A stretch of 64,000 nucleotides of DNA from a virus, in the IMG/VR virus record IMGVR_UViG_3300042502_001732, positions 64,001-128,000 of that record; one strand, given 5' to 3'. Below are positions 22,471-37,885 of the stretch, piece by piece. The notes below the pieces were generated by a model. That model saw only the letters and a list, made by a program, of their open reading frames with translations, was not told the origin of the DNA and made no database searches. The translations under genes were made by a program, and so were the position numbers. Within the stretch, counting starts at the first letter, position 1. Every line of letters begins with the position of its first letter.

Positions 22471-22501
22471 ATGGTTGTATGTTATTCTAGTTTCTTACTA
22501 C

Positions 22502-22729
22502 TCAGTAGTCAGCTAACTCACCGAATTCCTCTTCGACGAACTCTCGTGCGAACTCTCTGGCAGCGTCAGTGACTTCAGCAGCTAGGTCATAGCCGTTGTC
22601 GATCATCTCTTCGATCTCGTCGATGTAGTCGCAAAGTGATGCCGTGTCTGGCAGGTCTGATAGACTCATCATGGTGATGGCTTCGACTTCACGATTGATA
22701 ATGTTGATTGCTTTTTGTCTGTTTGTCAT
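22502..22729 (-). CDS. small acidic early protein
   Basis: About 20 D/E in 75 aa; own motif-1 promoter. Confidence 0.7.
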   Translation of the reverse strand: MTNRQKAINIINREVEAITMMSLSDLPDTASLCDYIDEIEEMIDNGYDLAAEVTDAAREFAREFVEEEFGELADY

Positions 22730-22812
22730 GGCAAGGTTATGATAATCTAGTTTTTAACTGGTGATTGGCAAGCAGGAGACGATCAATCTCCCACTTGCCT
22801 TTACCATGCTAC

Positions 22813-22890
22813 CTATTGAAACATTTGAATGACTACAACCATCCAGATGGCAAGGTTGAGTCCAATGACGATACCGAGTAATTCTTTCAT
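22813..22890 (-). CDS. 25-aa hydrophobic peptide MKELLGIVIGLNLAIWMVVVIQMFQ
   Basis: Hand-translated; below ORF-track cutoff; flanked by hairpins. Confidence 0.45.
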   Translation of the reverse strand: MKELLGIVIGLNLAIWMVVVIQMFQ

Positions 22891-22904
22891 GATGTTAAGA
22901 TATG

Positions 22905-22977
22905 TTGTCGCCCCCTCAACTTTCTACTGCGTTGCTACGGGATCTTGTGAGTAGGGGAAACCACCCCAGGGCGACAA
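22905..22977 (-). ncRNA. structured RNA element / leader
   Basis: TTGTCGCCC/GGGCGACAA closing stem enclosing GGGG/CCCC and CTACT/AGTAG hairpins; begins right after a motif-1 -10 box. Confidence 0.5.
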
Positions 22978-22997
22978 AAGGATTATGTTCTAGTTTT

Positions 22998-23198
22998 TTA
23001 CTGGTGGCCAGAGTAGTTTACTGGTTCGTCAGAGTCAACCTTGACGCACCAGCACTTCTTGGCTGTTTTCTTCTGGTAGTCAGTCCATGGCTTTGGGCCA
23101 AAGGCAGCTTCCCAAGCTGCCTTTTCTGTTGGGCCATCGCCCAGATTGCAATGTCGAAGGCAATTGATGCCCGATTGTCCTTTGATGATGTATTTCAT
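22998..23198 (-). CDS. small early protein
   Basis: Motif-1 promoter; TAA stop lies inside the next motif. Confidence 0.65.
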   Translation of the reverse strand: MKYIIKGQSGINCLRHCNLGDGPTEKAAWEAAFGPKPWTDYQKKTAKKCWCVKVDSDEPVNYSGHQ

Positions 23199-23223
23199 GG
23201 CGAAACTATTATGATCTAGTTTT

Positions 23224-23445
23224 TTACTGGTTGACTTTAGCTTCCCAGTTGAAAATGTCGGCTTGACTGATCTTGATGCCGTGCTTGTAAAACAAGTGGG
23301 ACAACGCGAGTCGGCTCATGCCTTTCTTGCGGCACACTCTGATTGCCTTTCGATAAGGCTCACAGCGCTTCACAAAGGGAGCGGTGCGGCGTGGCATCGG
23401 AGTGTTGATGATTTGATTTGAGATGTGTGCGGATGATAGTTTCAT
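23224..23445 (-). CDS. small basic HTH-like protein
   Basis: GMSRLALSHLF...ISQADIFNWE resembles an XRE helix-turn-helix. Confidence 0.5.
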   Translation of the reverse strand: MKLSSAHISNQIINTPMPRRTAPFVKRCEPYRKAIRVCRKKGMSRLALSHLFYKHGIKISQADIFNWEAKVNQ

Positions 23446-23484
23446 AGTAGTGGTGTGGTATTGGAATGATATTCTAGTTTTTTA

Positions 23485-23694
23485 TTAGTTAAATCGGCAA
23501 ACCTCTTCAAAAATTCCTTCGTTGTTTTGGACATAAAAGGAACAATCGAGCATTTCCATTTCGTCGTCCACTTCGTCTTCCATTGGAGGGCCAAACTCAA
23601 TCACATCGCAAATTGGAGTGAAGTGAAGCTCCTTGTGCTTGTCGATGTAGCAAAGGAACAAATTGTCTACTGTGTAATCTTCTAGTGTATTCAT
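23485..23694 (-). CDS. small acidic early protein
   Basis: Start MNTLEDY after motif 1; stop inside the next motif. Confidence 0.65.
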   Translation of the reverse strand: MNTLEDYTVDNLFLCYIDKHKELHFTPICDVIEFGPPMEDEVDDEMEMLDCSFYVQNNEGIFEEVCRFN

Positions 23695-23719
23695 GGTATT
23701 GGAATGATATTCTAGTTTT

Positions 23720-23923
23720 TTAATACTCCCATTCTGGCTCGTATCCATCAGCGAAACGATCTTCGTATGCCGCATCGAGCCATGCGTCTTCGTTGCCCTC
23801 GTTGGTGAGGTCATAGGGAAGCAGGTCGTCTTGCAGATTGTAATGGGGATCATACAATGCTTCATCGCCGTATTCTTCAACAAAGACATTGTATGGGATG
23901 GTATCGGGTTCAATAGTATTCAT
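23720..23923 (-). CDS. extremely acidic small protein (DNA-mimic candidate)
   Basis: 20 D/E versus 1 R and 0 K in 67 aa; Tyr-rich. Confidence 0.7.
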   Translation of the reverse strand: MNTIEPDTIPYNVFVEEYGDEALYDPHYNLQDDLLPYDLTNEGNEDAWLDAAYEDRFADGYEPEWEY

Positions 23924-23956
23924 GGTAGTGTTAGGATAATTTAGTTTCTTACTGGT

Positions 23957-24092
23957 GATCCTTTAGGCGGATCAATCCATCGCTTTTCTGGCAAGCCGAT
24001 TGCCACGCACCGCCACGCTCTCCGTTGCGGCTTTTCTCTTGTGCCTATTTGATCGGTCGGCTTCCGTGTTCCTACTATGCGGGAACCTAACG
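23957..24092 (-). ncRNA. putative structured small RNA cassette
   Basis: Lies between two motif-1 copies with no usable minus-strand ORF from the promoter; nested stems GTTCC/GGAAC, AAGCCGA/TCGGCTT, GCAC/GTGC, GCCGC/GTGGC, GATCC/GGATC. Confidence 0.5.
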
Positions 24093-24122
24093 CAAATTCA
24101 TCATAACCTAGTTTTTAACTGG

Positions 24123-24242
24123 TCAGATTTCGATGATGTCATCGTCATCGGCATAGGGATAAATCCCAGTATCGGGATCGTAAAGATCACCGAAAACGAT
24201 TTGCAATTCCAAGGTATCAAGTAGGGCGAGTAGGTCAATCAT
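24123..24242 (-). CDS. 39-aa acidic peptide MIDLLALLDTLELQIVFGDLYDPDTGIYPYADDDDIIEI
   Basis: Fills one motif-1 cassette exactly. Confidence 0.6.
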   Translation of the reverse strand: MIDLLALLDTLELQIVFGDLYDPDTGIYPYADDDDIIEI

Positions 24243-24286
24243 GGCAGGGTCATCATAACCTAGTTTTTAACTAGTGGATTTGAGAT

Positions 24287-24321
24287 AAAAAAAGGGGAGA
24301 GTGAAAAATCACTCTCCCCTT
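24287..24321 (-). terminator. intrinsic terminator
   Basis: AGGGGAGAGTGA/TCACTCTCCCCT stem plus U-run on the minus strand. Confidence 0.8.
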
Positions 24322-24329
24322 GTGGATTG

Positions 24330-24605
24330 TTATGCGTTGGCTTTTGCCGCTTCCATTTCCGCGATCATCGCCTTGAGGCGTTCGATCTTGGCCGCAGTTT
24401 TGGTTTCAGCGCGTCCGTTGTGGATTGCCTTGGACTCGACCTCAAAAAGGTCAACGCCATCGGGAGTGAAGCGGTGGGACATTGCCACTTCGACAATGAC
24501 GCGCAATGCTTCGCCGTCATTCTTCAACTCAAATTCCTCTTTCAAGGATTGGATGAAGTCTTTGTCGCGGAGGGTGGGAACGATAGGATGCTGTTTATTT
24601 TTCAT
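24330..24605 (-). CDS. small protein, ribbon-helix-helix-like N-terminus plus coiled coil
   Basis: Motif-1 promoter; ..FIQSLKEEFELKNDGEALRVIVE. Confidence 0.6.
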   Translation of the reverse strand: MKNKQHPIVPTLRDKDFIQSLKEEFELKNDGEALRVIVEVAMSHRFTPDGVDLFEVESKAIHNGRAETKTAAKIERLKAMIAEMEAAKANA

Positions 24606-24722
24606 AGCAAGGTCAGTGTATTCTAGTTTCTAACTGGTCTCAACCTTTCAGGCAGGTATCATTCCATCAATCTTCTTGGCGATTGATTGCCGTTTGGTGC
24701 TGGCATCATCATAACCTAGTTT

Positions 24723-24800
24723 CTAATTAGTCATTGCAAATTCATCAATGAATGTTTCGAGAATGTCACTAGGTGCTTCAATGCTTATTGCGATAATCAT
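24723..24800 (-). CDS. 25-aa peptide MIIAISIEAPSDILETFIDEFAMTN
   Basis: Fills one cassette; stop inside the motif. Confidence 0.45.
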   Translation of the reverse strand: MIIAISIEAPSDILETFIDEFAMTN

Positions 24801-24900
24801 GCGGTTAAATTTTATTTTAGTTTTTTATTAGTCTGGTGTATTTTTTAACTTATTATGAATAGATTGTTATGGTTAAGATTCCAGATTGGAATAAAAAGAT

Positions 24901-24943
24901 TCCGCTGGAGGATAATAATAACACAAAATTATCCTCCAGCGGA
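24901..24943. other. 16-bp perfect inverted repeat
   Basis: TCCGCTGGAGGATAAT / ATTATCCTCCAGCGGA. Confidence 0.8.
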
Positions 24944-24991
24944 TTTTACCACGATACTACACCTATAAAAAATTATATGATTTTAGGGAAA

Positions 24992-25216
24992 TTAGTCACA
25001 AAACAATCCCTTGCGTATCTTTCTTTTGCGATTCTTTGAAGGGGTATTTGCACAAGGCTTGAGCAAGCGCATAGGATTTTTGGATTTGACTGCTGTTAAA
25101 ATCCCGTGGATGAAGTATCCAAGGATTAGAATTGTTGTGAATCCAATTGAAAACCACACATAAAATGTGATGAATGTTTCGATTGTGAAGAATGATGTTG
25201 TTAGATATTCAATCAT
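24992..25216 (-). CDS. small membrane protein with basic tail
   Basis: TM helix; consensus sigma70 promoter directly upstream. Confidence 0.6.
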   Translation of the reverse strand: MIEYLTTSFFTIETFITFYVWFSIGFTTILILGYFIHGILTAVKSKNPMRLLKPCANTPSKNRKRKIRKGLFCD

Positions 25217-25222
25217 AATTTG

Positions 25223-25250
25223 ATTATATAATAAAGTTATTGATTGTCAA
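25223..25250 (-). promoter_or_regulatory. sigma70-type promoter giving a leaderless mRNA
   Basis: TTGACA-16 nt-TATAAT-6 nt-ATG. Confidence 0.75.
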
Positions 25251-25614
25251 GAGAGTTGCATTGGTAGCCAAGGAATTAGTTATATGAAACGAACGCAAGA
25301 GATTTTCCTTGGCTACCTTTGCAAAATTATCGTATACCAGCAAGCGCATCAGCCACTATGCGTTTTATCAGACTTAATAATGTATGTAGAACTCACAAAG
25401 TTGTGATGACAAACTGATTATATTATCATCGCAACTTTATAAACATCATTTTATCATTTACCAGATGAGATTACTTCGTGTGTTTTGGGATTGATCATTC
25501 TCACCAGATAGTCAATGATGAATTGAGTTGAGTCTTCTCCTATTGGATGGCTACCTAGTTGGTTGCCCATGCGATAAGTTAGATAGTTTTCGTGGATGGT
25601 AAAGACTAGATGGT

Positions 25615-25920
25615 TCATTGTTTGGAATGTTTGATGTGAAAAGCCACAAAGTCTTCTGCGAGATTATCAATTAGTTCTTCAACAAAAGCACTGGCATCAT
25701 CCATTGGGTGAAGTTCAAACTTTGAAACCGCATCCCAAACTTCGATTTGCTTTTGATCTTCCTGCTGTTCTGATGTGCTGTATTCATCAGCGAGCAAAGC
25801 GAGAGAGAGTCTTTCAGCACTCCAATCTTTGGGCCATTTGGAAAGGAAATGACCTGCGGCGATTAGGTATGCTTCGGCGTGGAGGGGATTGTTAGTGTCG
25901 AGGAGGATGTAGTCTTGCAT
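25615..25920 (-). CDS. hypothetical acidic early protein
   Basis: 101 aa ORF in a tightly packed leftward run. Confidence 0.65.
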   Translation of the reverse strand: MQDYILLDTNNPLHAEAYLIAAGHFLSKWPKDWSAERLSLALLADEYSTSEQQEDQKQIEVWDAVSKFELHPMDDASAFVEELIDNLAEDFVAFHIKHSKQ

Positions 25921-25929
25921 GGCGTGAGG

Positions 25930-26148
25930 TTAGTTGTTTTGGGATTGCTTGTCAACAAGTTCTTTCGCGATTTCTTCTTTGAGGTCTTCCAGTAGATCAA
26001 TGAAGTCAGAGAGTTCATCGTCCATAAGAAACATAGGAAGAATGCGGTCAATGATTGGTTCAGCAGGAAGCTCCCTTGTCAATTCGTAGTAACGCTTGAG
26101 TTTACAAGTATCGTGTGCGAACTCACCGATTTGTTTGATTGGTTGCAT
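25930..26148 (-). CDS. hypothetical early protein
   Basis: 72 aa, MQPI start. Confidence 0.6.
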   Translation of the reverse strand: MQPIKQIGEFAHDTCKLKRYYELTRELPAEPIIDRILPMFLMDDELSDFIDLLEDLKEEIAKELVDKQSQNN

Positions 26149-26150
26149 GG

Positions 26151-26312
26151 TTATTGTTCGATGAGGTTATTTTGTTTACAAAACTCGGCAATTACACCAT
26201 TCATCTCCGTAAGAAAGTCGGAGATCATGAGTTCCTTGTCGAATGAGACTTCGTTGCCTTCGATGCAATATAAAAGGTCAACTTGGATTGTGGGTGGATT
26301 GATTGGTTGCAT
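26151..26312 (-). CDS. 53-aa acidic protein (MQPINPPTIQ...)
   Basis: Hand-translated; fills the gap exactly. Confidence 0.55.
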   Translation of the reverse strand: MQPINPPTIQVDLLYCIEGNEVSFDKELMISDFLTEMNGVIAEFCKQNNLIEQ

Positions 26313-26317
26313 GGTGA

Positions 26318-26482
26318 TTAGTCGTCAGCGTGGTGAGTTTCCATTAGTTCAGCAAGATAGCCGCGAATTTCATCAGCGGTTTCGCTTTCTCCTCCAGAGT
26401 ATTCGTTAACAAGATCGAGAGCTTGATTGGCGATTTCCTCAAGGGCTTCAATTGTGTTTAGTAGTTTTTCGATTGTGGTCAT
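26318..26482 (-). CDS. 54-aa acidic helical protein (MTTIEKLLNTIE...)
   Basis: Hand-translated; motif-1 promoter. Confidence 0.6.
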   Translation of the reverse strand: MTTIEKLLNTIEALEEIANQALDLVNEYSGGESETADEIRGYLAELMETHHADD

Positions 26483-26520
26483 GTCAATAGTATAGTTTAG
26501 TTTCTTATTAGTGAAAGTGT

Positions 26521-26618
26521 GCTCCCCGCTAGGAGTCGAACCTAGGCTTCCAAGCTATCAGCAAAGCTATCCATGGTTTGCTTTGCTTTAGTGTTTGGTG
26601 TGCCAGCGCATCGGGGAG
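26521..26618 (-). ncRNA. tRNA-like RNA with abnormal D and anticodon arms
   Basis: Acceptor CTCCCCG/CGGGGAG; T-arm CTAGG-TTCGACT-CCTAG; long AGCAAAGC/GCTTTGCT arm; motif-1 promoter immediately upstream. Confidence 0.7.
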
Positions 26619-26645
26619 GTGAGCTTATTGTAAGTTAGTTTTTTA

Positions 26646-27128
26646 TTAGACGCTGGCAGGAATTTCTTCGTCCTCGTCGTATTCGACAAAGTTAAAGTTT
26701 TCTTTTGCAAACTCCGTGACATCAGCATCATCGACTTGGTTGTCGTCAATTTGACCTTCGGAGATGATAGCAGTCCCAGCAAACCAGCAACCGCTCTCAA
26801 AGTAGTCCAGCGTGAATTGATCGTTTGGAAACATTTCAGACAAAGCGGCAATGGCTTGAAGTGGTGGACTCCAAGCAGTCATAAAGGTTGCTTGAAAGTC
26901 TGCGATCTCGGAGATGAGTTGGTCAGCAACTTCACGCTGCTCTTCTTCGCTCAAGTCCCATTTGGTTCCCCAGTTTTCAAGTCTCCAATCATACCATCCA
27001 TTGCCCTCAAGCAATTCGGGTGGCGTGGGTTTGATCTTCTCAAAAGAAAGACCATTTTCTTTTAGATAGCTTTCCAATTCTGGACTGCAATCCATGATCG
27101 ACAATTTGTTTTCGCACCAGTTAGGCAT
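26646..27128 (-). CDS. YubB/DUF1281 ferredoxin-like domain protein
   Basis: MPNWCEN...WYDWRLENWGTKWD...F.TAWSPP. Confidence 0.8.
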   Translation of the reverse strand: MPNWCENKLSIMDCSPELESYLKENGLSFEKIKPTPPELLEGNGWYDWRLENWGTKWDLSEEEQREVADQLISEIADFQATFMTAWSPPLQAIAALSEMFPNDQFTLDYFESGCWFAGTAIISEGQIDDNQVDDADVTEFAKENFNFVEYDEDEEIPASV

Positions 27129-27153
27129 AGTAGTAGTATAGTTTAGTTTCTTA

Positions 27154-27402
27154 TTAGTTGATCTTCATCAAAGAAAGAAGTTTCAATGTGATTGGCTTTT
27201 CAGCAACATGGAAGAAGAAACCATATTCCAAAACCTCAATGTCGCCATCGACTTCGGCAAGAGAAATATAGTCATCGCCGTGATTATCAGCAACGAATGG
27301 GCCTTCGTCATCATAGCCGATAAAGTAAAGCGTATCGTTTAGATCGACAGCATAAGCGTCACCAAGTTCTTCGTGTAGTTGTTCAAGTGTGGTTGTTTGC
27401 AT
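27154..27402 (-). CDS. small acidic early protein
   Basis: Exactly fills a motif-1 cassette. Confidence 0.65.
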   Translation of the reverse strand: MQTTTLEQLHEELGDAYAVDLNDTLYFIGYDDEGPFVADNHGDDYISLAEVDGDIEVLEYGFFFHVAEKPITLKLLSLMKIN

Positions 27403-27419
27403 GTTGTTAGTAGTATAGT

Positions 27420-27515
27420 TTAGTTTCTTATTAGTGTATGGGAGTATCTCAAGTCTTCTTCGCTGTTGAAGGTGATGAAGTATTCAATTTCGGTCATATT
27501 AGGGTAGTTTGACAT
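27420..27515 (-). pseudogene. truncated copy of 33441-33641
   Basis: MTEIEYFITFNSEED matches MTEMEYFITFNSEED, then runs into motif 1. Confidence 0.55.
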
Positions 27516-27762
27516 GGTATTAGTGGTGGTATTTGTATTAGAGGAGATTGTGATCAATGTAGTCTTGAATGGATGGAATGCTTTCCATGTATTGCTGCAG
27601 ATCAGCAATAATATCATCTAGATTCTCGCGGTTGTGAGTGTGGGGGCAACCAAGGTTGTTGTTGACAAGCTTGAGGATTTGCTCTGCGATTTCTTCGTGG
27701 GTTGGGTAGTGTTTCATATTGTTGCTTATATGGCTTTAGTGTAGGTTAGGAGTTGGGGTTAG

Positions 27763-27951
27763 TCAAATTTTTTCTGCATCCAAGTCGATGCCGTCATAGT
27801 CAACCCAGAAAGATCCTTCGATGTAGGAGCTTTCTTTGGGCAAAGGTCTTTCATCTTGTTCCGCGAGTTCAATCGCATCTTGCAATGATTCAGCTTCAAT
27901 TTCCATGTATCCGTAAGATTCCCAGACACAGGGGATTTTGTATGTTTTCAT
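27763..27951 (-). CDS. small acidic protein (V/IEAES..DAIE.A family)
   Basis: Motif-1 promoter. Confidence 0.65.
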   Translation of the reverse strand: MKTYKIPCVWESYGYMEIEAESLQDAIELAEQDERPLPKESSYIEGSFWVDYDGIDLDAEKI

Positions 27952-28148
27952 GTTGTTAGTAGTATAGTTTAGTTTCTTATTAGTCTACGAGAAACCTGCG
28001 CTTCCATTGTGATTCTTGCACTTGTTTATCAAGCCAAGATTGTTGTTGAAAGATGCGGATTCCATACACAGGTTTTTGTTTTGTAAAAAACAATGATATG
28101 ATTTGGTCGAGTAGCTTCATGTTGTTATGATAGTTTAGTTTTTTATTA

Positions 28149-28499
28149 TTACCTTGCATTTAGAGCATACACAAGTCGGTTGTTAATAATGACACCATCG
28201 GCTTTGTCAATATACTTTGTTCCATCAAAGAATCTTTCTTTTAGATATGGATTGTATCCTACGATTTGGTATTGATGTTGAGTGGGATCAAGTTCATTGG
28301 TAGGTTCTCCAATAATAAATGCGTGGACATTTTTCCTCTTTTGTTGCAACACTCTTTGTCTTCCTGCTTCACTCACCTTGAATGAAACATTCTTGAGATG
28401 TATTGCATCAACATGACGCATGACTTTCCACACGCCATTGACTTTCTCTTGAACACTCAAGCGTTTTTTATGTAGATTGTAGTAGACGCGAACATTCAT
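28149..28499 (-). CDS. conserved phage hypothetical protein
   Basis: VYYNLHK...FKVSEAGRQRVL..KRKNVHAF. Confidence 0.75.
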   Translation of the reverse strand: MNVRVYYNLHKKRLSVQEKVNGVWKVMRHVDAIHLKNVSFKVSEAGRQRVLQQKRKNVHAFIIGEPTNELDPTQHQYQIVGYNPYLKERFFDGTKYIDKADGVIINNRLVYALNAR

Positions 28500-28503
28500 A
28501 AGT

Positions 28504-28686
28504 TTATTGAGCTAGTTTTTGAAGGGCTTCAAGACAATCAAGGCGGGTCTTTTTTCCCGTGATTGCTTTGGCAGTTTTGAATACGAGATTGCGACTATGC
28601 CGCATTCCCATGATTTCAAGTTTCAATCCGCTGATAAGGACACGCAAGCGGTATCCATCAATTTGTTCTTTAGTAGTTAGTATCAT
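28504..28686 (-). CDS. hypothetical protein
   Basis: Motif-1 promoter; LKLEIMGM. Confidence 0.6.
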   Translation of the reverse strand: MILTTKEQIDGYRLRVLISGLKLEIMGMRHSRNLVFKTAKAITGKKTRLDCLEALQKLAQ

Positions 28687-28766
28687 AGCGACCTCAGTAT
28701 ATTCTAGTTTTTTATTATTAAAATAAGGGCAGTTTTATGTCATACCCAGGACATTGCTACTACTAC

Positions 28767-29270
28767 TTATGAAAGTTCCTCATAATCCTCTGTGCCAAGG
28801 ATATTGTTAGATTTTACGGTGAAACATTCGGGGCGATTTTCTTCTGGATTCAGTAGCTTTTTGCGCTCGCTTTCAGTAAGAAACTCAGCGAATGTTCCTT
28901 TATCGACCACTTGCCCATCGACATAATAAGTCGAAGATGGAAAGTGATTGTTGCCAGTTGAAGGATAAAGCCTGATATATTCAGCATCTTTATGCTCAAT
29001 AACATAGGGAAATTGTTTCCAATTACCCCATGGCAGACTTTGCACTTCCCCACGCTCGCCATTTTCAATGGCATCTTTGACGCTGGAAAGGTTAGCAAAG
29101 TTCACGCCAGCACGAACAACAGCACTTGTCACTTTTTCAAGAATGACATTCTTATGAGCGGCGGCGGGTTTGGGATTGCTTTTCCAATAGGCTTTTACAA
29201 AAGAACCTTTCGTGTTGAGGATCTTATTGATAACTTCAGTTGCGGTTAGTGATGCAGTATGTGTATTCAT
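28767..29270 (-). CDS. hypothetical early protein
   Basis: 167 aa; motif-1 promoter. Confidence 0.7.
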   Translation of the reverse strand: MNTHTASLTATEVINKILNTKGSFVKAYWKSNPKPAAAHKNVILEKVTSAVVRAGVNFANLSSVKDAIENGERGEVQSLPWGNWKQFPYVIEHKDAEYIRLYPSTGNNHFPSSTYYVDGQVVDKGTFAEFLTESERKKLLNPEENRPECFTVKSNNILGTEDYEELS

Positions 29271-29375
29271 AGCGACCTTAATATAATCTAGTTTCTTATT
29301 AGTGACAGTGTATTGGGGTTTGGTAACGAAACAGATTTCATTACCAAAACCAATATATTCTAGTTTTTTATTAGT

Positions 29376-30893
29376 TTATTCAGCTTCTTTATTGCCACGA
29401 GTCGGGCAATCGGTGATATGAACAAGTTTGTTCTTTGCTCGCGTGATGGCAACATATGAGAGATTCTTTTCTTGTTCTTTCATCCAATCCAAAACCGCAT
29501 ACTTACTTGGTTGAAATTGACTCATACCAAGGATATAACAGTTGTCAAATTCCAATCCTTTTGACTTGTGAATGCTTGACAGTGTGACTACATTCGGCTT
29601 TTTATAGTCGTCATTATCACTGAACATATCACTGATAAGTTTTTGAAGAGATGCAACATCATGCTTGCCGAGGGTTTGGCATCGCTCAATGAGAATCATC
29701 ATTGTATCAAATTTGTCTTCAAGCAGTGCAAGTTTTGCTTTACTAGCCTTTTCGCTTTCACGATCAAAATGCTTTTGAAGTCGAAGTGTAAACGTTGCCA
29801 AGTCTTTTACTTTCCACTTGCGAGTGAGTGTAATAAGGTTTTGACCAATGTCTTTTCCTTCGATTCTACAACCAATGCCTTCACGAATAAGCGCAAACGC
29901 AAGAGCAACAAGCGGGGAATTATTGCGACATATGATACCATCATTTTTATTAAGGTTTAATGACGGTGTAGATTTTACAAATTCATCATACTTAATTGAA
30001 GATATTTCCCCGTCGTTGTTATTTTCAAATGCTTCAATGTCTGCTACATATTCTTTAGCAGCGGTGATAATATTCTTTCCGCAGCGATAGCAAACACTCA
30101 GCGGAAGTTCAACAGCGTCAAACATAGTTTTGATGAGTTCCATGCTATTGTTTTCAGCACCAGTAAACCCATAGATAGCTTGATTTGGATCACCAATAGC
30201 AATCAATCTACCACCTGGCTTAAGCATTTTCTTGAGCAAAAGCTTTCTACAAACATTGGTATCTTGTGCTTCATCAACAATAATCCAATCATATTGTATC
30301 ATATCAACATCAAAAAGCAATGGGAAATAAAGCATATCACTGAAATCAATGCTTTTGACATCACGGTTATTAAGATCCAGTACCTTTTGGCATACATCAA
30401 TAATCGTTTCCAAGCTCACATCAGCATCAATATCAATATCATTATGCTGAATAATATTGACCCAAGCATTGATATCATCAACAGTGTTGCAACCAGAAAC
30501 ACCAAAACCGTATTCTTTTGCAAAGCGAACCATATCCATGATTGCTTTACGACACTTCATAAGTTCCCCTTCTTGAGTGAAATACTCAACAAAGTTATAA
30601 ACCTTGGAGTTATTAACACTCATTTTGCCTTTTGCTTTGGCAAGACTTTTCAATGATTCACTATGAAAAGTAGCAGCACTTGCATTGGGATAACCCATAG
30701 TAACAAGACGATTTTGCAATTCAGTTGCAATTTTCTTGTTGAAAGCAAGCATCAAAACATCACCGCTCATACGATCAACAGCATTGATAGCAGTAGTAGT
30801 TTTACCACTTCCCGCTTTAGCATTGACAATCGCATTGCCAGTTCCTTCAGATACCCATTTATATATATTTTCTTGATAAGTAGATGCAAACAT
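29376..30893 (-). CDS. UvrD/Rep-like SF1 helicase
   Basis: AKAGSGKTT, VDEAQD, GDPNQAIYGF, CYRC, IHKSKGLEF, YVAITRAK. Confidence 0.92.
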   Translation of the reverse strand: MFASTYQENIYKWVSEGTGNAIVNAKAGSGKTTTAINAVDRMSGDVLMLAFNKKIATELQNRLVTMGYPNASAATFHSESLKSLAKAKGKMSVNNSKVYNFVEYFTQEGELMKCRKAIMDMVRFAKEYGFGVSGCNTVDDINAWVNIIQHNDIDIDADVSLETIIDVCQKVLDLNNRDVKSIDFSDMLYFPLLFDVDMIQYDWIIVDEAQDTNVCRKLLLKKMLKPGGRLIAIGDPNQAIYGFTGAENNSMELIKTMFDAVELPLSVCYRCGKNIITAAKEYVADIEAFENNNDGEISSIKYDEFVKSTPSLNLNKNDGIICRNNSPLVALAFALIREGIGCRIEGKDIGQNLITLTRKWKVKDLATFTLRLQKHFDRESEKASKAKLALLEDKFDTMMILIERCQTLGKHDVASLQKLISDMFSDNDDYKKPNVVTLSSIHKSKGLEFDNCYILGMSQFQPSKYAVLDWMKEQEKNLSYVAITRAKNKLVHITDCPTRGNKEAE

Positions 30894-30961
30894 GTGACAG
30901 CAGTATATTCTAGTTTTTTAGTAGTCTTTTTTCTACAATTCTAGTTTTTTAGTAGTGGATA

Positions 30962-31660
30962 TTACTCTGGATTCACAACAAATCCCGTATCATCTTTCTT
31001 GGCTTTGCCTTTATCAACAAGACCAACAACACAATTACTAGGATCAAGAAAGCGAAGATCATTGGTATCACCATCAACAACAACCTTATTCTTGTAAGTA
31101 GCAGGAAGTTTTTTGCGAAAAACAACAGCAACATTGCCACCCATACTCATAATAAGATCAGTATGAGATTCATTGCTTTCACTACGAGAGAAAGTAAGAT
31201 GATAATTCTTTGGAAAATTACCATTAACAAACTCAATCATACGCTTTACATTCTTGGTATAATCATAAAATACAACATCGGGAAAGTGTTGCATCATATT
31301 CTTGCCTTGAAACAAGACATTTTCCCAAGGAATATCACTTGTAAGATTGAATCTAAAGCAAGGAATCATATCATTCTTCTTTGCTTTTTTAACAGCACTT
31401 TGAATTTCTTTATACAATTTAAGCAAGAAATCTTGTTTATCATTAAAGAAATACTTGGTTTTATTGATACGAGATTGTTGAACATTTGAATAAACACCCA
31501 TGCCAGCGGTATTAAGACAAGCAGCCGCACAACCTATTGATGCAAATTGACAAGTGTTATAACCAGACAATTTAGCAGGAGCTAAATGAATACCATTTGA
31601 ATAATAACCAAATGATTCACCTTTTTTGATTTTTGTATTTGCAGTAGTGAGTAGTTTCAT
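30962..31660 (-). CDS. GP88-like phage protein (radical-SAM-related fold)
   Basis: LAPA...CQFASIGCAAACL, RFNLTSDI, FYDYTK, DGDTNDLRFLD. Confidence 0.8.
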   Translation of the reverse strand: MKLLTTANTKIKKGESFGYYSNGIHLAPAKLSGYNTCQFASIGCAAACLNTAGMGVYSNVQQSRINKTKYFFNDKQDFLLKLYKEIQSAVKKAKKNDMIPCFRFNLTSDIPWENVLFQGKNMMQHFPDVVFYDYTKNVKRMIEFVNGNFPKNYHLTFSRSESNESHTDLIMSMGGNVAVVFRKKLPATYKNKVVVDGDTNDLRFLDPSNCVVGLVDKGKAKKDDTGFVVNPE

Positions 31661-32455
31661 AGCGACAACAATATAATCTAGTTTTTTATTAGTTTCGATT
31701 CAATCGTGATGATGAATATCAATAAAACAATATGATGATTTATTGATATTGATTTCAATCATGCGAAATCATTATGATCTAGTTTCTTATTAGTTTTTAT
31801 ATCTTTTTCTATATTGATATATAAACTTATATCTTCAACTATGATAATCTAGTTTTTTATTAGTCTTTTTATCCTTTCTACTATCTGTTTATCTTTGTTT
31901 TATTTTTTTAATTATTATTGTCTTTATCATTGATAAAATTTGCTATATCATTATTAGTTACGCTACGCGACATGTTTTATTCCGTAACTCATTGATAATC
32001 AATGATTTTGTTTTTTTGGATACAGATCGTTGGATATATATTATATTGTGTTTATCTGGCGTATTTTGTTGATATATATCGTGTGTGTATCTGTGTGTGC
32101 TTGTGTGTATCTATGTGTATTTTGATACATTTTATGCGTATTTTGATATTGTTTTAGTATATTTTGGTGTATTTATACGCTATTTTTGTTTGTTTTTGAT
32201 CCTCATTTCCTTTATGAGTTGATCGTATTCCCCGCTTCTGTATTGTTTTAAGATGATATCCACTGCAATGCAACAGGCTTTAAAATTATTTTTTTGGGTA
32301 TTGTTTGATTGTTTCATGTGTGTGTTGTTGTTATTGTGTGTATGCTTATTCACTAGCCATTATGCGTTTTATCAAATTTACATGTTTATATCAGATAAAC
32401 AAAGTTGTGATATTTACAAAGTTATAATGGTGACATTATTGTATTGATACCAATG

Positions 32456-32641
32456 TCAATGAACTGATATGTTATTGTCTATTTTTATTTTAGAATTTGG
32501 AAAAGTCCAACACTCTTTTGTATCGTTTATAAAACAAACCCAGTGTAAGTCATGTTCTTGGGAATAATCAATTACCAGATGTGCATATCCTTTTCCTTTG
32601 GGTGTTGTTACTGGTATTGTTGGGTTTAATTGTAATATCAT
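32456..32641 (-). CDS. conserved small phage protein
   Basis: MILQLNPTIPVTTPKG...IDYSQEHDL.W. Confidence 0.65.
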   Translation of the reverse strand: MILQLNPTIPVTTPKGKGYAHLVIDYSQEHDLHWVCFINDTKECWTFPNSKIKIDNNISVH

Positions 32642-32656
32642 AAGTTACATTTGTTT

Positions 32657-32920
32657 TTATAATTTATATTTGAATGTCTTACCATCTATGATATTGTCTT
32701 GTACCAATATATCAAGTGCCAAGGATTTATCTAGGATTTCGTAGGGATTATCTTTTGATTCCAACAACATATTGTTTCCTATCTTGTCGTTGATTACAGG
32801 ATGGATTGTTATGTTTTGTATGTTTATTGTTTTGTCTTGCAGTAATGTGAACGTTATGTGTGCTAGATGAACATCTGCGTCTTCTTCGCTGGTTATCAAT
32901 GATCGATGAATGTACTGCAT
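32657..32920 (-). CDS. hypothetical protein
   Basis: 87 aa ORF. Confidence 0.5.
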   Translation of the reverse strand: MQYIHRSLITSEEDADVHLAHITFTLLQDKTINIQNITIHPVINDKIGNNMLLESKDNPYEILDKSLALDILVQDNIIDGKTFKYKL

Positions 32921-32948
32921 ATTTGATGTTTTGTTGTATCAAAGTTTG

Positions 32949-33197
32949 TTACTTTTTAATCTCTAGGATTTCCACCTTCACGATCTTGCGTGAGATTTCG
33001 TTGTGGAATACATAATCAGATCCCACATAATAATCATCTACAATCTGTTGGATTGATTTATCTACCAGCATTACTAAAAGAACATTAAAGCCAGTAGTGA
33101 AGCGATCACCGTCTTCAATTGTGATATTCAGTGTAACTGTGATATATTCGCGTCTACTACAATCTTCATAAAAAACGCTTGAGTGTTCGTTGGTCAT
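32949..33197 (-). CDS. hypothetical protein, near-identical to 49826-50035
   Basis: Shared LNITIE.GDRFTTGFNVLLVML...VEILEIKK. Confidence 0.65.
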   Translation of the reverse strand: MTNEHSSVFYEDCSRREYITVTLNITIEDGDRFTTGFNVLLVMLVDKSIQQIVDDYYVGSDYVFHNEISRKIVKVEILEIKK

Positions 33198-33220
33198 ATT
33201 GTTATTGTATCAGAGTTTTA

Positions 33221-33418
33221 TTACCAGTGGGTGTATTCTTTGATGATACCCTCTTCATTCAGATAGCGAGCACACACATAAGTCTGAACGCAACTATCAT
33301 CACATGTCTCGAAAACATGAAACTTATCTTGCAACTCATACACAGCTTCGAGATACAATCTGCATGCTTCTTTTGCAGAGTCTAAGTTAGGATGAACATC
33401 ATTAGGTGGCATAGTCAT
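33221..33418 (-). CDS. hypothetical protein
   Basis: Fills a motif-2 cassette. Confidence 0.55.
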   Translation of the reverse strand: MTMPPNDVHPNLDSAKEACRLYLEAVYELQDKFHVFETCDDSCVQTYVCARYLNEEGIIKEYTHW

Positions 33419-33440
33419 ACTCTTATTGTATTAGTGTTCC

Positions 33441-33641
33441 TTAGTCCAATTCGTAGGTATCAACCTCGATGCCGATCTTACTTAGCTCGTGTACAGCGTG
33501 ATTGCGATACCATTCTTGATTCCAAAGCATCTCAAGACCTCCTTTTTTGAAGTCGTCTGGAAGAAGAAGGGATGTCATCTCACTAGCTTTGATAAAGTCT
33601 TCTTCGCTGTTGAAGGTGATGAAGTATTCCATTTCGGTCAT
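33441..33641 (-). CDS. hypothetical protein
   Basis: Fills a motif-2 cassette. Confidence 0.6.
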   Translation of the reverse strand: MTEMEYFITFNSEEDFIKASEMTSLLLPDDFKKGGLEMLWNQEWYRNHAVHELSKIGIEVDTYELD

Positions 33642-33653
33642 ATTATTATTGTA

Positions 33654-33788
33654 TCAGTGTTCCTTGTTTATTTCCTTCTTACCATCCTTACGCACACGCT
33701 TATTCTGTATGCGTTTATAGTATTTGCGTAGATGCTTCCACCATTGAACGGTCTTGACACCGCCTTTACTCTTTGATGAACTACTCAT
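33654..33788 (-). CDS. 44-aa highly basic peptide (copy 1)
   Basis: MSSSSKSKGGVKTVQWWKHLRKYYKRIQNKRVRKDGKKEINKEH; conserved copies at 50047 and 51333. Confidence 0.65.
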   Translation of the reverse strand: MSSSSKSKGGVKTVQWWKHLRKYYKRIQNKRVRKDGKKEINKEH

Positions 33789-33804
33789 TTGTTTATTGAT
33801 AAAA

Positions 33805-34413
33805 TTAACTGACGGTTTGTTGTTCTAGTTGTTTGAGTTTGTTTTTCAAGCTGTTTAATTTGTTTTCAATCGAGCTGTTTTTATTTTCAACGAGTCGTAT
33901 CATTGATCTACAGCATTTACAAAACTGATAGTATGATGGTTTTGGATTGTTGCCTTGATATTTCAAGGAGTTTTGAATACGATTATGACTGGTGGTTTTG
34001 ACGCGAATAATCCTTGAACAATCGCATGTGTATTCGTATGTGTTTTGTCGTTTGGTTTTGGTAACACTGGTGTCATAGCTGTGGCAACGAATCGGTTCAG
34101 CATTGAAAACCTTTATCATAACATATTTCCATTCTTTGCCATGACTCTTTACAAAACTACCAAACACCATTCTCTGAATATAATGAGCCATTTCATGAAC
34201 AACAATCTCATGAAAGGTTTGTTTGTTATGCTCTGCCAAGTCAAGTTGGAACATCAATTCTCTGATTGATTGATTAAAAGACACAAGACAAGTTCCTGCT
34301 GTTGTGCCGTTTCTTTTAAAGATGATGTTGGTGGGTCTTGGAAAAACCCTGTTAAAGAATTTTTCAGCAATGAGGAAACATTCTTCAACCTTTTGTAGTA
34401 TGGTGTCTTGCAT
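33805..34413 (-). CDS. SprT-like zinc metalloprotease
   Basis: TTAG, VHEMAH, HGKEWK, RCHSY, YTCDC. Confidence 0.9.
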   Translation of the reverse strand: MQDTILQKVEECFLIAEKFFNRVFPRPTNIIFKRNGTTAGTCLVSFNQSIRELMFQLDLAEHNKQTFHEIVVHEMAHYIQRMVFGSFVKSHGKEWKYVMIKVFNAEPIRCHSYDTSVTKTKRQNTYEYTCDCSRIIRVKTTSHNRIQNSLKYQGNNPKPSYYQFCKCCRSMIRLVENKNSSIENKLNSLKNKLKQLEQQTVS

Positions 34414-34517
34414 GACAACAGTATATTTTAGTTTTTTATTAGTTTCTTGAAATCCATCAAACGATGAAATGAATCTACAATCCTTTTATAAAAAAAACAA
34501 TTTGACTAAATAATACT

Positions 34518-34823
34518 ATGACTACAAAAGATCAATATAATTTAGCTAACTTGTATAAGGAATCATACGAAAATGATGACATTTCATTTGATGCTGATTT
34601 ATCCGATGTTAATTTAACTTACAATGATGAAGAATCTGCACTTATTGAAAAATATGGCAAATTGGGAGAAAAGCTTGTAAATTACTTTCATGCACTTGAA
34701 AATGCACTTAAAAATCCCATGACTAATTTTGCAACTATTCAACACTTAACGGATAAAATCAATTCCATGCAACATGGTATGCGTATGGTAGATAGTAGAA
34801 ACAAAGTTGATAGACATTCATAA
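34518..34823 (+). CDS. late protein, probable internal head protein
   Basis: CTAAATA upstream; MTTKDQYNLANLYKESYE leader. Confidence 0.6.
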   Translation: MTTKDQYNLANLYKESYENDDISFDADLSDVNLTYNDEESALIEKYGKLGEKLVNYFHALENALKNPMTNFATIQHLTDKINSMQHGMRMVDSRNKVDRHS

Positions 34824-34833
34824 ATTTTTAAAG

Positions 34834-35049
34834 TTATCCAATTAAGATTGCTTTACAATCGCTTTCTTCCTCCTCTTCAACAATCTCATGGTTGCCATAA
34901 TACCATTCACTATTTACTCCTAGCTTTATAGACTCTTCTCTACATACAGAACACGCATTTACTCCTCCTTCATATCCATTAACAACAACCATTGTTTCTG
35001 GATCGTATTCTTGAAGTTTTTCAATTAATTGTTTGACTTTCATCTTCAA
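34834..35049 (-). CDS. hypothetical protein (MKVKQLIEKL family)
   Basis: Common phage N-terminal motif. Confidence 0.6.
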   Translation of the reverse strand: MKMKVKQLIEKLQEYDPETMVVVNGYEGGVNACSVCREESIKLGVNSEWYYGNHEIVEEEEESDCKAILIG

Positions 35050-35252
35050 TTAAAAAAGAAAGGAAACGATTGTTTGACTAGGGAAAGAGTCAATTCTTCA
35101 CAGATCAACCATTTGATAAGAACGATTGGGTAAAAGATGGCATCAATGATTCCCCAGAATAGACTATTGTTGTTTAGGTTATATCCCAGTACACCAACGA
35201 TGTAAGCCAAGACATAACTATAATTAGAACGGTAATGATAAGTTTTGTTCAT
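35046..35252 (-). CDS. small membrane protein
   Basis: Hydrophobic; ATGA-coupled. Confidence 0.55.
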   Translation of the reverse strand: MNKTYHYRSNYSYVLAYIVGVLGYNLNNNSLFWGIIDAIFYPIVLIKWLICEELTLSLVKQSFPFFFN

Positions 35253-35350
35253 ATTAAAAAAGATTAATAATTGCTTTAATGATGGTTACGAAAACCATTG
35301 TTAAGCACACTCCCATAAAGAGTGTGCAAAGAATTAGGATTGGTGTTGAA

Positions 35351-35614
35351 TCAAAGTTTTTCATTTAAAAATGTTTCTATTTCTTCGAAAAATTCACCAT
35401 CCCATTCACGATTTTTATTGATGGTTTCAAATTCATCTGTTAAGTCTTCAGCAAGTTCATAAAGACCACCGTGTCCTTTTTCTTTAATAGTCTTTTCCAA
35501 CAATTCACTGTGGTCTATTTCATGCGTATGCATCGCATGTGCAACAGTGATTGCCGCAACTACTTCATAATGAGTCTCTTGCCAAGATGCAAATCCGTTT
35601 GGGAAATTTTTCAT
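35351..35614 (-). CDS. conserved phage hypothetical protein
   Basis: FPNGFASWQETHYEV...GGLYELA..LTDEFE. Confidence 0.7.
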   Translation of the reverse strand: MKNFPNGFASWQETHYEVVAAITVAHAMHTHEIDHSELLEKTIKEKGHGGLYELAEDLTDEFETINKNREWDGEFFEEIETFLNEKL

Positions 35615-35710
35615 AAATGTAATTTAGATGAGATGATTGTATTTTAGTTTTTTATTAGAATTTTTTTATAAAAGATTATGAATCTATTCATAATATGGAT
35701 AAATAATAAT

Positions 35711-36070
35711 ATGAAATGTTTAATTTGTGAGAAATCATTAGAGGGAAGACAGAAAAAATTTTGTAGTAGTAAATGTAAAAGTATGTTAGCTAATAATAAA
35801 TTGCAAAATTATCAAGCACAGCAAACAAGGGGCAAGATAAGAAAAAAAAAGTTAATCGAAATGAAAGGAGGCTGTTGTGAAAAATGCGGTTATAATAAAA
35901 GTTTAGCAGCATTGTCTTTTCATCATTTGAATCCAAATCTTAAAAAATTTCATTTAGATATTAGAAATCTTTCCAATAGGAAGTGGGAAATGATTATTGA
36001 AGAATTTAATGAATGTGAATTGTTGTGTTTTAATTGTCATATGGAATTACATCATGGTTGCGAATGGTAG
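35711..36070 (+). CDS. free-standing HNH homing endonuclease
   Basis: CxxC...FCSSKC, GGCCEKCGY, FHHLNP, LLCFNCHMELH; ATAAATA late box upstream. Confidence 0.85.
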   Translation: MKCLICEKSLEGRQKKFCSSKCKSMLANNKLQNYQAQQTRGKIRKKKLIEMKGGCCEKCGYNKSLAALSFHHLNPNLKKFHLDIRNLSNRKWEMIIEEFNECELLCFNCHMELHHGCEW

Positions 36071-36347
36071 GGGTGGAGGGATTCGAACCCCCACTCAATC
36101 GATTATGCTTACCACTATAGTTTTCACTACCCTTTCGGTTTGTGGTCTGGACTATCCCTTAATCTTCAGCATTACCTGTTAAGACTGAACTATTATAGTC
36201 TCTGCACGTCTCTCTTTCGAGATTTCGCTCAAGATTGGCATCAGCATTACCTGTTAAGCGTTCCTTGAATTTAAGTTCTGCTAACTTATTATTTCTAACA
36301 AGAAGACCCGTTAAAGTCGACTGCTTTGACCATTAAGCTACACCCCT
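36065..36347 (-). tRNA. tRNA with CAU anticodon (probably Ile2/lysidine type), split by a group I intron; exons 36347-36315 and 36107-36065
   Basis: Spliced: AGGGGTG...GTCGA-CTCATAA-TCGAT...GGGGGTTCGAATCCCTC-CACCCCT-ACCA; the A1-U72 pair argues against an initiator tRNA. Confidence 0.85.
36108..36314 (-). mobile_element. group I intron (207 nt, no ORF)
   Basis: Inserted after U33 and ends in G; P AAATTCAAGGAA, Q AATCTTGAGC, R GCAGAGACTA, S AAGGGATAGTCC. Confidence 0.9.
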
Positions 36348-36400
36348 TTATATAAAATTGAACAGCCTTTTATTGACTTGCTTAGGTCAGATTGCCGATA

Positions 36401-36574
36401 TTATCGGAGTCTGTATTGATTTGTTTCGATGTTGACATCGACAAGATTGCGCTTTTCAAGAGCAAGAATAATGCGCTTGGCGTTCTTATCAAAAGAATGC
36501 CATCCATCAATCTTACTGATGAATGCAAACGCTTCTCTTTGATGTTTGCCCATCTTTTTAATGTTTGTTTCCAT
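36401..36574 (-). CDS. 57-aa basic protein (METNIKKMGKHQRE...)
   Basis: Hand-translated; TTGACA...TATCTT promoter near 36627-36655. Confidence 0.5.
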   Translation of the reverse strand: METNIKKMGKHQREAFAFISKIDGWHSFDKNAKRIILALEKRNLVDVNIETNQYRLR

Positions 36575-36691
36575 ATTATTGCGTTTTTTGCTGTTATCGG
36601 TGAATCATCATCACCGCCGACTAATTTAAGATACCAACAATTTTCACTTTGTCAACATCTTGTCCCATAAGATAATCTAGTTTTTTATTAA

Positions 36692-36880
36692 TTATTCTGA
36701 AAACATGCTGTTGTCGTTTTCGTATTCATCGGAAGAAAAAGTCTTTCTTAAAACTATTTCTGTAATATATTTGTCACACAGATGATTGATATAATCATCA
36801 AATTCTTTATCATTCAGAAAACCAACAGCCACATGCCCATTGGCAAGCATAACTTTTTCTATTGGTTTTTTATTATACAT
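36692..36880 (-). CDS. hypothetical protein
   Basis: Leftward small-gene run. Confidence 0.5.
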   Translation of the reverse strand: MYNKKPIEKVMLANGHVAVGFLNDKEFDDYINHLCDKYITEIVLRKTFSSDEYENDNSMFSE

Positions 36881-36895
36881 TATATAAACTTTTTA

Positions 36896-37123
36896 TCAAG
36901 CGAATTCTACTTCGATTTCGTGTCCTGTTTCTGATTTGGTTTGTCCATCTAGAACAAGATAGATTGCGGCGTGGTATTTATCTTCATCAATATCATAGAA
37001 AAAGTTTAAATCAACAAATTCATTTATTACATGCCACTCATCTTCTTCATGAGCGCGTTTAATTGTATACTGACCTTCTTGTGTGTCAAGAATAAGTTCT
37101 TGTTCTTTGACAATAAGTTTCAT
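36896..37123 (-). CDS. hypothetical acidic protein
   Basis: Leftward small-gene run. Confidence 0.55.
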   Translation of the reverse strand: MKLIVKEQELILDTQEGQYTIKRAHEEDEWHVINEFVDLNFFYDIDEDKYHAAIYLVLDGQTKSETGHEIEVEFA

Positions 37124-37144
37124 TTGTTTCTTTATTAGATGTGT

Positions 37145-37345
37145 TTAAGAACTTTTCCTACCATTCGAATAGCAACGATGAATTTTACCATCATCACCCG
37201 TTTTAAATAAAATCCATTCTCCTTTATTATGTTTTTGTTTAAGATAGTCTTTAACCCATTTAGGAAAATCTGTAAAACTATCAGCAGTCTTTATTTTATG
37301 TTCAAATGGAGTAGCGATAATACAAACATACCTAGCGGGTTTCAT
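37145..37345 (-). CDS. hypothetical protein
   Basis: ATGA-coupled. Confidence 0.5.
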   Translation of the reverse strand: MKPARYVCIIATPFEHKIKTADSFTDFPKWVKDYLKQKHNKGEWILFKTGDDGKIHRCYSNGRKSS

Positions 37346-37605
37346 TTGTTTCTGTATTTACGGAGAAGTTGCTCGTCTGTCATGCGGGTAGTCAAGAATG
37401 TCTGGTGGAAAGTGACAGGGATGTTGCCATACTCACCATCATCATGGATAAGAGTGTCGCCATTGTAGATATCAAAATCTGCACCCCAATAACTTTCATT
37501 AATAACTACTGGTGGGAATCTCTCACCATCAATATTTGAGGTGATATTATGCTCAATGACTACTCGTCTTTTAGGATTAAAAAGATTAAAAATATTAAAA
37601 AACAT
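37342..37605 (-). CDS. hypothetical protein
   Basis: Probable start MFFNIFN. Confidence 0.5.
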   Translation of the reverse strand: MFFNIFNLFNPKRRVVIEHNITSNIDGERFPPVVINESYWGADFDIYNGDTLIHDDGEYGNIPVTFHQTFLTTRMTDEQLLRKYRNK

Positions 37606-37878: not shown

Positions 37879-37885
37879 AAAATTA

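Follow-up and report, generated by a model that had tools for sequence, protein, structure and literature searches.

A 98-nt gene of an uncultured T4-like phage encodes a member of a real but narrow and previously undescribed family of tRNA-like RNAs, in which covariation clearly points to a fold under selection and to an RNA that is not a decayed tRNA. The gene occupies positions 26521 to 26618, minus strand, of the window, that is, the whole 64,000-nucleotide stretch of DNA that was analyzed, which represents bases 64001 to 128000 of a 143.9-kb IMG/VR record (completeness estimate, 69%). Genes identified in the phage genome include those for a capsid protein of the T4 Gp23 type (284 bits), for 21 true tRNAs (CCA encoded in 21/21), and for one tmRNA. 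The RNA gene lies in a 163-nt gap between minus-strand open reading frames (ORFs) at 26646 to 27128 and 26318 to 26482, as a member of an array of small, acidic, early-type genes. Neighboring genes for DNA polymerase B and for ClpP-like, PD-(D/E)XK, phosphoesterase, and DUF1281_C proteins gave no functional link, and no partner protein kept adjacent to the RNA across the family was found. When synteny was followed via the neighboring helicase, two related contigs stopped short of the RNA locus. A shared small upstream "ORF" was rejected, since it equals the conserved promoter region, which is readable in several frames. The 144 kb of the record yielded no gene for SmpB, a CCA-adding enzyme, TROVE, Abi_2, or either of two RNA ligase families; these absences constitute weak evidence because the record is only about 69% complete.

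The RNA (R1 score, 111 bits; alignment column i equals coordinate 26619 − i) begins with the acceptor-stem strand CUCCCCG (26612 to 26618, minus strand, as are all features of the gene), which pairs with CGGGGAG at 26522 to 26528; this 3′ strand and the unpaired C73 together span 26521 to 26528 and are followed by ACAC. A 13-nt D region without a conserved stem (26599 to 26611) leads into a long arm in place of the anticodon arm (26550 to 26598), which consists of the closing stem CCAA/UUGG, the conserved internal loops ACA-CUA-A facing GA-UAG-C, the 8-bp helix AGCAAAGC/GCUUUGCU, and the 12-nt terminal loop AAA-CCAUGG-AUA (26568 to 26579), in which the palindrome CCAUGG (26571 to 26576) is exactly centered. 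The 4-nt linker AAGC at the variable-loop position (26546 to 26549; GAGA in other lineages of the alignments) precedes the T arm CUAGG-UUCGACU-CCUAG (26529 to 26545), which carries the canonical G53, U54, U55, C56, A58, and C61. Among the unpaired positions, A8, G10, U14-G15-G16, and C19 of the D region, the 5′ internal-loop ACA, and the opposing A61 are invariant throughout the alignments, and the CUA/UAG pairs next to the internal loop never vary. A sequence-only reading of this DNA, in which an intact CTCCCCG/CGGGGAG acceptor stem and a canonical T arm, an unpaired D region with TGG, an elongated helix (CCAA/TTGG, internal loop, 8-bp helix, and 12-nt loop) replacing the anticodon arm, and the lack of an encoded CCA had been described, thus agrees with this anatomy.

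Folded as a single sequence, the minus strand has a minimum free energy (MFE) of −35.5 kcal/mol (z = −3.0; equaled by 2 of 200 shuffles), whereas the plus strand folds less distinctly (z = −1.9), with a diffuse ensemble. The MFE structure of the window copy adds a 3-bp D hairpin (UGC/GCA) that is kept in no homolog, so that "unpaired" is the correct description of the D region for the family. A pseudoknot between the D region and the loop (UAUU with AAUA) was dropped, since some lineages lack the pairing, and the absence of tandem G·A pairs led to the rejection of a kink turn in the internal loop.

Homologs were sought with sequence patterns in IMG/VR and JGI metagenomes, and the matches were verified against a purpose-built covariance model (R1). 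The family comprises nine distinct short sequences (96 to 98 nt) and a 159-nt long form, on about 20 uncultured phage contigs, one of which (L025) carries the positional ortholog of the window copy with identical flanks. The long form is a paralog from the same genome, located at 140183 to 140341 of the record (minus strand), and the tRNA cluster follows about 2.6 kb downstream of it. R1 scores were 104 to 115 bits for members and 57.5 bits for the long paralog, and true tRNAs reached at most 28 bits. No homolog was found by megablast and blastn among 50,697 GenBank phages, in which the only matches were T-arm words within true tRNAs, and the family pattern had no match in 185,579 prokaryote species (one genome each). 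In IMG/VR, the exact 25-nt 3′ pattern had no match, and a relaxed pattern returned 19 new loci, none of which (0/19) was a member by R1.

In the alignment of the nine sequences, 95.5% of cells pair, and 0 of 500 shuffles reached the observed score, a statistic that overstates independence, because the approximately 20 contigs come from closely related phages representing few independent lineages. Double compensatory changes were present in 14 of 27 helix pairs (17 of 30 with the three loop positions included) and were spread over the acceptor (5/7), the closing stem (2/4), the distal helix (6/11), and the T stem (1/5). The T stem was 100% paired, and the long-arm pairs (21–24/66–69 and 28–39/52–64) were 96 to 97% paired, with 8 of them covarying. 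Sliding the 3′ partner by 1 to 3 columns lowered pairing to 31 to 46% of cells, and RNAalifold, unaided, predicted the same structure. Intact pairing had been taken in the sequence-only reading as a sign of selection rather than decay, with homolog collection and a covariation analysis named as the way to check it; the double changes across nine distinct homologs bear this out. The first, 7-sequence alignment contained five G-U/U-G cells versus one A-C cell, the kind that would read as G-U on the opposite strand, and this G-U bias, the T-loop sequence, and the orientation of the promoter agree in showing the minus strand to be the predicted coding strand.

The phage promoter motif CTAATAAAAAACTAAC with its −10 box TACAAT is located at 26627 to 26652 on the minus strand (−10 box at 26632 to 26627), and the stop codon of the upstream gene falls inside it. 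With the box 8 nt before C1, a leader of about 2 nt is predicted, as had been anticipated from a motif-1 start site close to the 5′ stem. Within the window, the motif AAACTA-N3-TAnnnT occurs in 30 minus-strand copies versus 2 plus-strand copies, mostly 6 to 12 nt before an ATG; the thirty copies, of the form CTAATAA(A/G)AAACTA-N3-TAnnnT, span 22493 to 38635 (minus strand) and usually stand 6 to 12 nt 5′ of the ATG. Such an array implies that the early mRNAs would be leaderless or nearly so and that the promoter would be recognized without a −35 box. The next promoter motif begins 9 nt past position 73 of the window copy and, with one copy 8 nt before the RNA and the next 9 nt after it, the RNA makes up the entire cargo of one promoter unit. 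Neither a sigma-70 −35/−10 pair nor an intrinsic terminator was found in 26200 to 26900.

The ends of the RNA differ among lineages. In two contigs (L010 and L019), the RNA sits 6 nt behind an ORF without a promoter, and its 5′ end would therefore need an endonuclease such as RNase P. In two others (L011 and L015), a TACAAT box is found 6 nt upstream of G1, which mismatches A72, a layout as expected if transcription were to start at position 1; a G·A mismatch of the 1-72 pair is present in three lineages. Most lineages carry C/A-R-CCA after the stem, which sets CCA off from the stem by one base more than a tRNA does; in the window copy a C is lost (C-ACAC versus C-A-CCA in relatives). An 8-bp or shifted acceptor register that would bring CCA to the tRNA position was rejected, since the extra pair never forms.

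These arrangements bear on whether the fold might serve in cis, as an RNase P or 3′-processing signal that cuts early polycistrons or stabilizes mRNA ends, much as mitochondrial and plant t-elements do, the excised RNA being without a function in trans. Such punctuation would suit the several members that lie directly behind ORFs without a promoter of their own, and the lack of a terminator after the window copy means that transcripts must continue into the next gene. However, with a dedicated promoter 8 nt upstream and the promoter of the next gene 9 nt downstream, no cut is needed at the window locus, and a cis signal leaves unexplained the internal loop ACA-CUA/GA-UAG, the covarying 8-bp helix, and the centered palindrome. 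We consider both the cis role and the likening to t-elements unlikely, and we favor an RNA that would act as a molecule in its own right.

The terminal loop has a property that was missed in the sequence-only reading: in every lineage, its core is self-complementary and exactly centered. The loops are AAA-CCAUGG-AUA (window copy), GAA-UCAUGA-AUA, GAAG-CGCG-AAUA, GAAG-UGCA-AAUA, and G-AGCUAGCU-A, and the predicted terminal loop of the long paralog, which derives from a single-sequence MFE fold, is A-GUUAAC-G. A centered palindrome of 4 to 8 nt was thus present in 6/6 distinct family loops and was matched by 0 of 200,000 joint shuffles (of related lineages); the chance of a centered palindrome of at least 4 nt is 3 to 9% per loop. 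Loop columns 44 and 47 were C-G in four and U-A in three sequences, and columns 45 and 46 were G-C in four and A-U in three; they were never unpaired. Neighboring bases such as those of columns 45 and 46 are unable to pair in a single molecule.

Compensatory change inside a hairpin can be mimicked by quasi-palindrome correction, and the region might accordingly represent a DNA quasi-palindrome (a recombination or protein site) produced by template switching, or else a degenerate or hairpin-disrupted tRNA, given that this phage has broken and odd tRNA genes elsewhere. Yet covariation is found also in the acceptor, the strands of which are about 90 nt apart, and in the closing stem; the G-U pairs favor one strand; and the half-site sequences are not conserved as they would be in a protein operator. 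The conserved, non-complementary purines (GAA...AUA) that flank the core and separate it from the stem also argue against hairpin correction by template switching, which would be contiguous. Both the DNA-level and the decay explanations are in our judgment quite improbable.

At the RNA level, the simplest reading is a probable self-pairing loop, and the data suggest that the RNA would form homodimers joined by kissing loops. A self-complementary core that is kept through compensatory change, the hallmark looked for in a kissing loop, was found here. Loop-loop duplex energies ranged from −4 to −14 kcal/mol. For the window copy, RNAcofold favored the homodimer over two monomers by 14.2 kcal/mol, compared to 7.6 ± 0.6 kcal/mol in loop-shuffled controls, of which 0 of 200 were as good. 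A core of just 4 nt, as in two lineages (UGCA, −4.1 kcal/mol), would make for a weak kissing complex, and the palindromes of the two paralogs of one genome do not cross-pair.

The neighborhood of the long paralog contains an orphan abiF-motif RNA (RF03085) at 140704 to 140740 of the record, minus strand (L033:2022-2058, minus strand), which scored 47.1 bits over the full model (gathering score, 37) and is followed by a U-run. It lies 363 nt upstream of the paralog on the same strand, and the 363-nt spacing between the two RNAs recurs in L041, L054, and L067; copies of the abiF-motif RNA are located at L041:4001-4037, L054:6627-6663, L067:12873-12909, and L044:5807-5843. An Abi_2 gene was not found in the 144 kb of the approximately 69% complete record. 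The abiF-motif RNA is an antitoxin that binds and neutralizes the AbiF toxin (PMC12373285), and an orphan copy in a lytic-type phage is plausible as a candidate antitoxin mimic or decoy directed against host AbiF. Its proximity raises the prior that the tRNA-like RNA serves in antidefense too but proves nothing.

Two conserved elements, a TATAAT promoter and a hairpin, lie between the abiF-motif RNA and the paralog, as does a hydrophobic ORF of 28 codons. At L033:1780-1900 (minus strand), the TATAAT promoter, with an A/T-rich upstream tract, is followed by the 28-codon hydrophobic ORF, which has MKETLGIF at its start. Other lineages have different small ORFs under this promoter, in every case upstream of the tRNA-like RNA. 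A conserved element of about 65 nt (GAGCUUCGGGCACUCG...AAAACUGCUC) is located at L033:1660-1775 (minus strand) and also beside members in L007 to L011, L041, and L044. It shares the trailer CACCACUUUCAAAAAACAAUUU with the tRNA-like RNA, so that a direct repeat flanks the RNA. As a single sequence, the element folds unremarkably (z = −0.3).

Its setting in a phage, its resemblance to a tRNA, and the orphan abiF antitoxin-type RNA beside the paralog link the tRNA-like RNA to a conflict with HEPN RNases and might suit a decoy that soaks up PrrC-, RloC-, or HEPN-type cutters of tRNA anticodon loops; a decoy for anticodon nucleases had been proposed from the sequence alone. The loop does not bear out this proposal: it is 10 to 12 nt long, variable, and constrained only to self-complementarity, and no lineage has a 7-nt loop with U33 and an anticodon-like triplet. 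The arm is moreover about three times as long as an anticodon stem. In the 144 kb, no T4-type RNA ligase repair gene was found, though the PF09511 control search was empty in all genomes. A decoy for anticodon nucleases is, in our estimation, highly improbable.

We give as little credence to a truncated tmRNA-like domain that would bind SmpB or be alanylated and so modulate trans-translation alongside the phage tmRNA. Its attraction is the layout, since the tRNA-like domain of tmRNA likewise combines a 7-bp acceptor and a T arm with a 13-nt D loop that has GG but no stem, with a helix, and with a 4-nt linker, and the tmRNA of this phage (56748 to 57074) matches the RNA in this respect. The domain differs, however, in having G3·U70, GAC/GAC junction motifs, and an mRNA-like part, none of which is present here: pair 3-70 (alignment 3-95) is C-G in 9/9 sequences, so that the alanine identity pair of tmRNA is absent, and the GAC/GAC motifs at both helix-2 junctions of the phage's own tmRNA are replaced by CCCG and GAGA. 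There was no RF00023 match at E ≤ 10, no SmpB gene in 144 kb, and no coding region with resume and stop codons, and 98 nt is too short for a tag frame. The phage tmRNA itself, a one-piece form on the minus strand of the window, scored 84.2 bits with Rfam, carries G3·U70 and an encoded CCA, and was not reported by ARAGORN.

Compared with a tRNA, the RNA has the 7-bp acceptor and the 5-bp T stem with a GTTCRANYC loop; it has neither a D stem nor an anticodon arm with 5 bp and a loop of 7 nt, and in place of the latter stands an arm of 4 + 3 + 8 bp with a 10- to 12-nt loop, and it lacks CCA directly after position 73 (C-ACAC in the window copy). ARAGORN called no tRNA in its default mode, in intron mode, or at an 80% threshold, and no match to the Rfam models for tRNA (RF00005) and tmRNA (RF00023) was obtained even at E ≤ 10, an outcome in line with the sequence-only reading, in which a pseudogene or no isotype had been expected; neither a tRNA isotype nor an intron-containing tRNA was called. 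A functional decoding tRNA of unusual shape, for instance, one with an intron, is the least probable of the explanations considered, since despite the perfect acceptor and T arm and the CAU in the loop of two lineages, neither ARAGORN (introns, low threshold) nor the Rfam tRNA model calls one, a D stem is missing, the length of the arm greatly exceeds what ribosomal geometry allows, conservation does not extend to the loop triplets, and there is no bacterial-type intron.

The tRNA genes of these phages include further departures from the canonical form. A third noncanonical tRNA-like gene is found at 133897 to 133997 of this genome (minus strand), outside the window and inside the tRNA cluster; it has a C1-G72 acceptor, normal D and T arms, and a branched middle of about 50 nt. 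Unlike all neighboring tRNAs it lacks CCA, it is not matched by R1, and ARAGORN calls it only with introns or at a low threshold and with conflicting isotypes. A 96-nt tRNA-Ile(UAU) (137482 to 137577, minus strand) and an 87-nt tRNA-Thr(UGU) (135787 to 135873, minus strand) have long extra arms that are unusual for their isotypes. Group I introns (RF00028, 61 to 73 bits) are present inside the tRNA clusters of related phages (L054:10333-10521, L067:9767-9955, and L067:4513-4707).

From the anatomy of the RNA and its neighborhood, we infer a decoy function. The RNA mimics only the top half of a tRNA: its acceptor would stack on the T arm, and the T loop would meet the UGG of the unpaired D region in an elbow. 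The anticodon arm is replaced by a presumably rigid arm of about 18 pair-layers that has a conserved asymmetric internal loop and ends in the purine-flanked, self-complementary loop. Maturation would be carried out by host tRNA enzymes; in copies that trail an ORF, RNase P would have to generate the 5′ end, and the 3′ end would have to be trimmed, whether or not CCA is then added. Two molecules could then join via the loop palindrome, as at the HIV-1 dimerization site, to form a rod in which each of the two heads is a tRNA top half. Early in infection, the RNA would act in trans by occupying a host factor that reads the acceptor end or elbow of tRNA, most plausibly a tRNA-directed defense or processing enzyme, and this would involve neither anticodon mimicry nor decoding. 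Taken jointly, the small, stable tRNA-top-half mimic gene, its maturation by host enzymes, the loop dimer, and the early decoy in trans form a reading whose chances we judge to be evenly balanced. It is a more doubtful proposition that the two-headed particle titrates or bridges a reader of the acceptor end or elbow (e.g., a toxin that modifies tRNA 3′ ends) and makes up, with the abiF-motif RNA, an RNA-only antidefense islet of T4-like phages; this we regard as unlikely. If the abiF link is functional, it points to RNA decoys as a class of phage counterdefense.

Y-like RNA (YrlA), which had also been suggested, ends in a Ro-binding stem on the anticodon side and is linked to a Ro/TROVE gene. 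The suggestion fails here, because the ends of the RNA form an acceptor stem and a search of the 144 kb of the record revealed no Ro/TROVE gene. The sole Rfam match to the RNA was mascRNA/MEN-beta (RF01684), which likewise keeps the acceptor and T arm and has no functional anticodon; the match is weak and partial (15.5 bits versus a gathering score of 42.5), only the 3′ part aligns, and mascRNA is a eukaryotic family.

As for the predicted dimer, the HIV-1 dimerization initiation site SL1 has a self-complementary loop core, unpaired flanking purines, and a stem with an internal loop. As in SL1, the palindromes here differ between lineages, and GCGC- and UGCA-type cores also occur; the two differ in that SL1 belongs to an unrelated molecule and setting, and the loop here is 10 to 12 nt with a core of 4 nt in two lineages. 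GOLLD, ROOL, and manA families sit near tRNA genes. Like the RNA described here, for which the dimer is a prediction, they are structured, phage-borne RNAs, and they form homo-oligomers; they differ in having no sequence or structure relation to it, in not being tRNA mimics, and in having assemblies that were solved experimentally. RNA dimers have been reviewed (PMC7357161), and self-assembly of phage-associated noncoding RNAs has been described for GOLLD and ROOL (PMC12286853) and for the manA motif (bioRxiv 10.64898/2026.07.01.735769). If the dimer is real, it would add a small, simple case to these self-assembling RNAs.

The closest likeness is to the tRNA-like stable RNAs of T4, which have been known for some fifty years. 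T4 species 1 RNA is cut by RNase P from the tRNA-cluster transcript and is stable in vivo. In the fold of this RNA (rnaC, NC_000866 70908-71046), a 7-position acceptor-like stem stands beside a canonical T arm (GGGUUCGAAUCCC), and the D and anticodon arms give way to long hairpins, as in the plan found here; both come from T4-type phages, and both rnaC and the paralog adjoin a tRNA cluster. It differs in having two hairpins, two U·U acceptor mismatches, no centered loop palindrome, and late expression, compared to the one arm, the UGG D region, and the own early-type promoter of the window copy. R1 found nothing in the T4 tRNA region at E ≤ 10, and BLAST of rnaC and rnaD against this genome returned only words of 11 to 14 nt from the generic T loop. 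The analogy to T4 species I/II RNAs drawn earlier thus holds for the acceptor-plus-T-arm plan shared with species 1 and not for homology, whether to rnaC or to rnaD. As late as 2022, rnaC was described as an RNA of unknown function (PMC9697503). T4 species 1 RNA is the nearest known analog of the RNA described here, analogous and not homologous, and the tRNA-like RNAs of T4-type phages thereby gain a second, unrelated family, with covariation, a defined promoter, two paralogs, and loops that probably self-pair.
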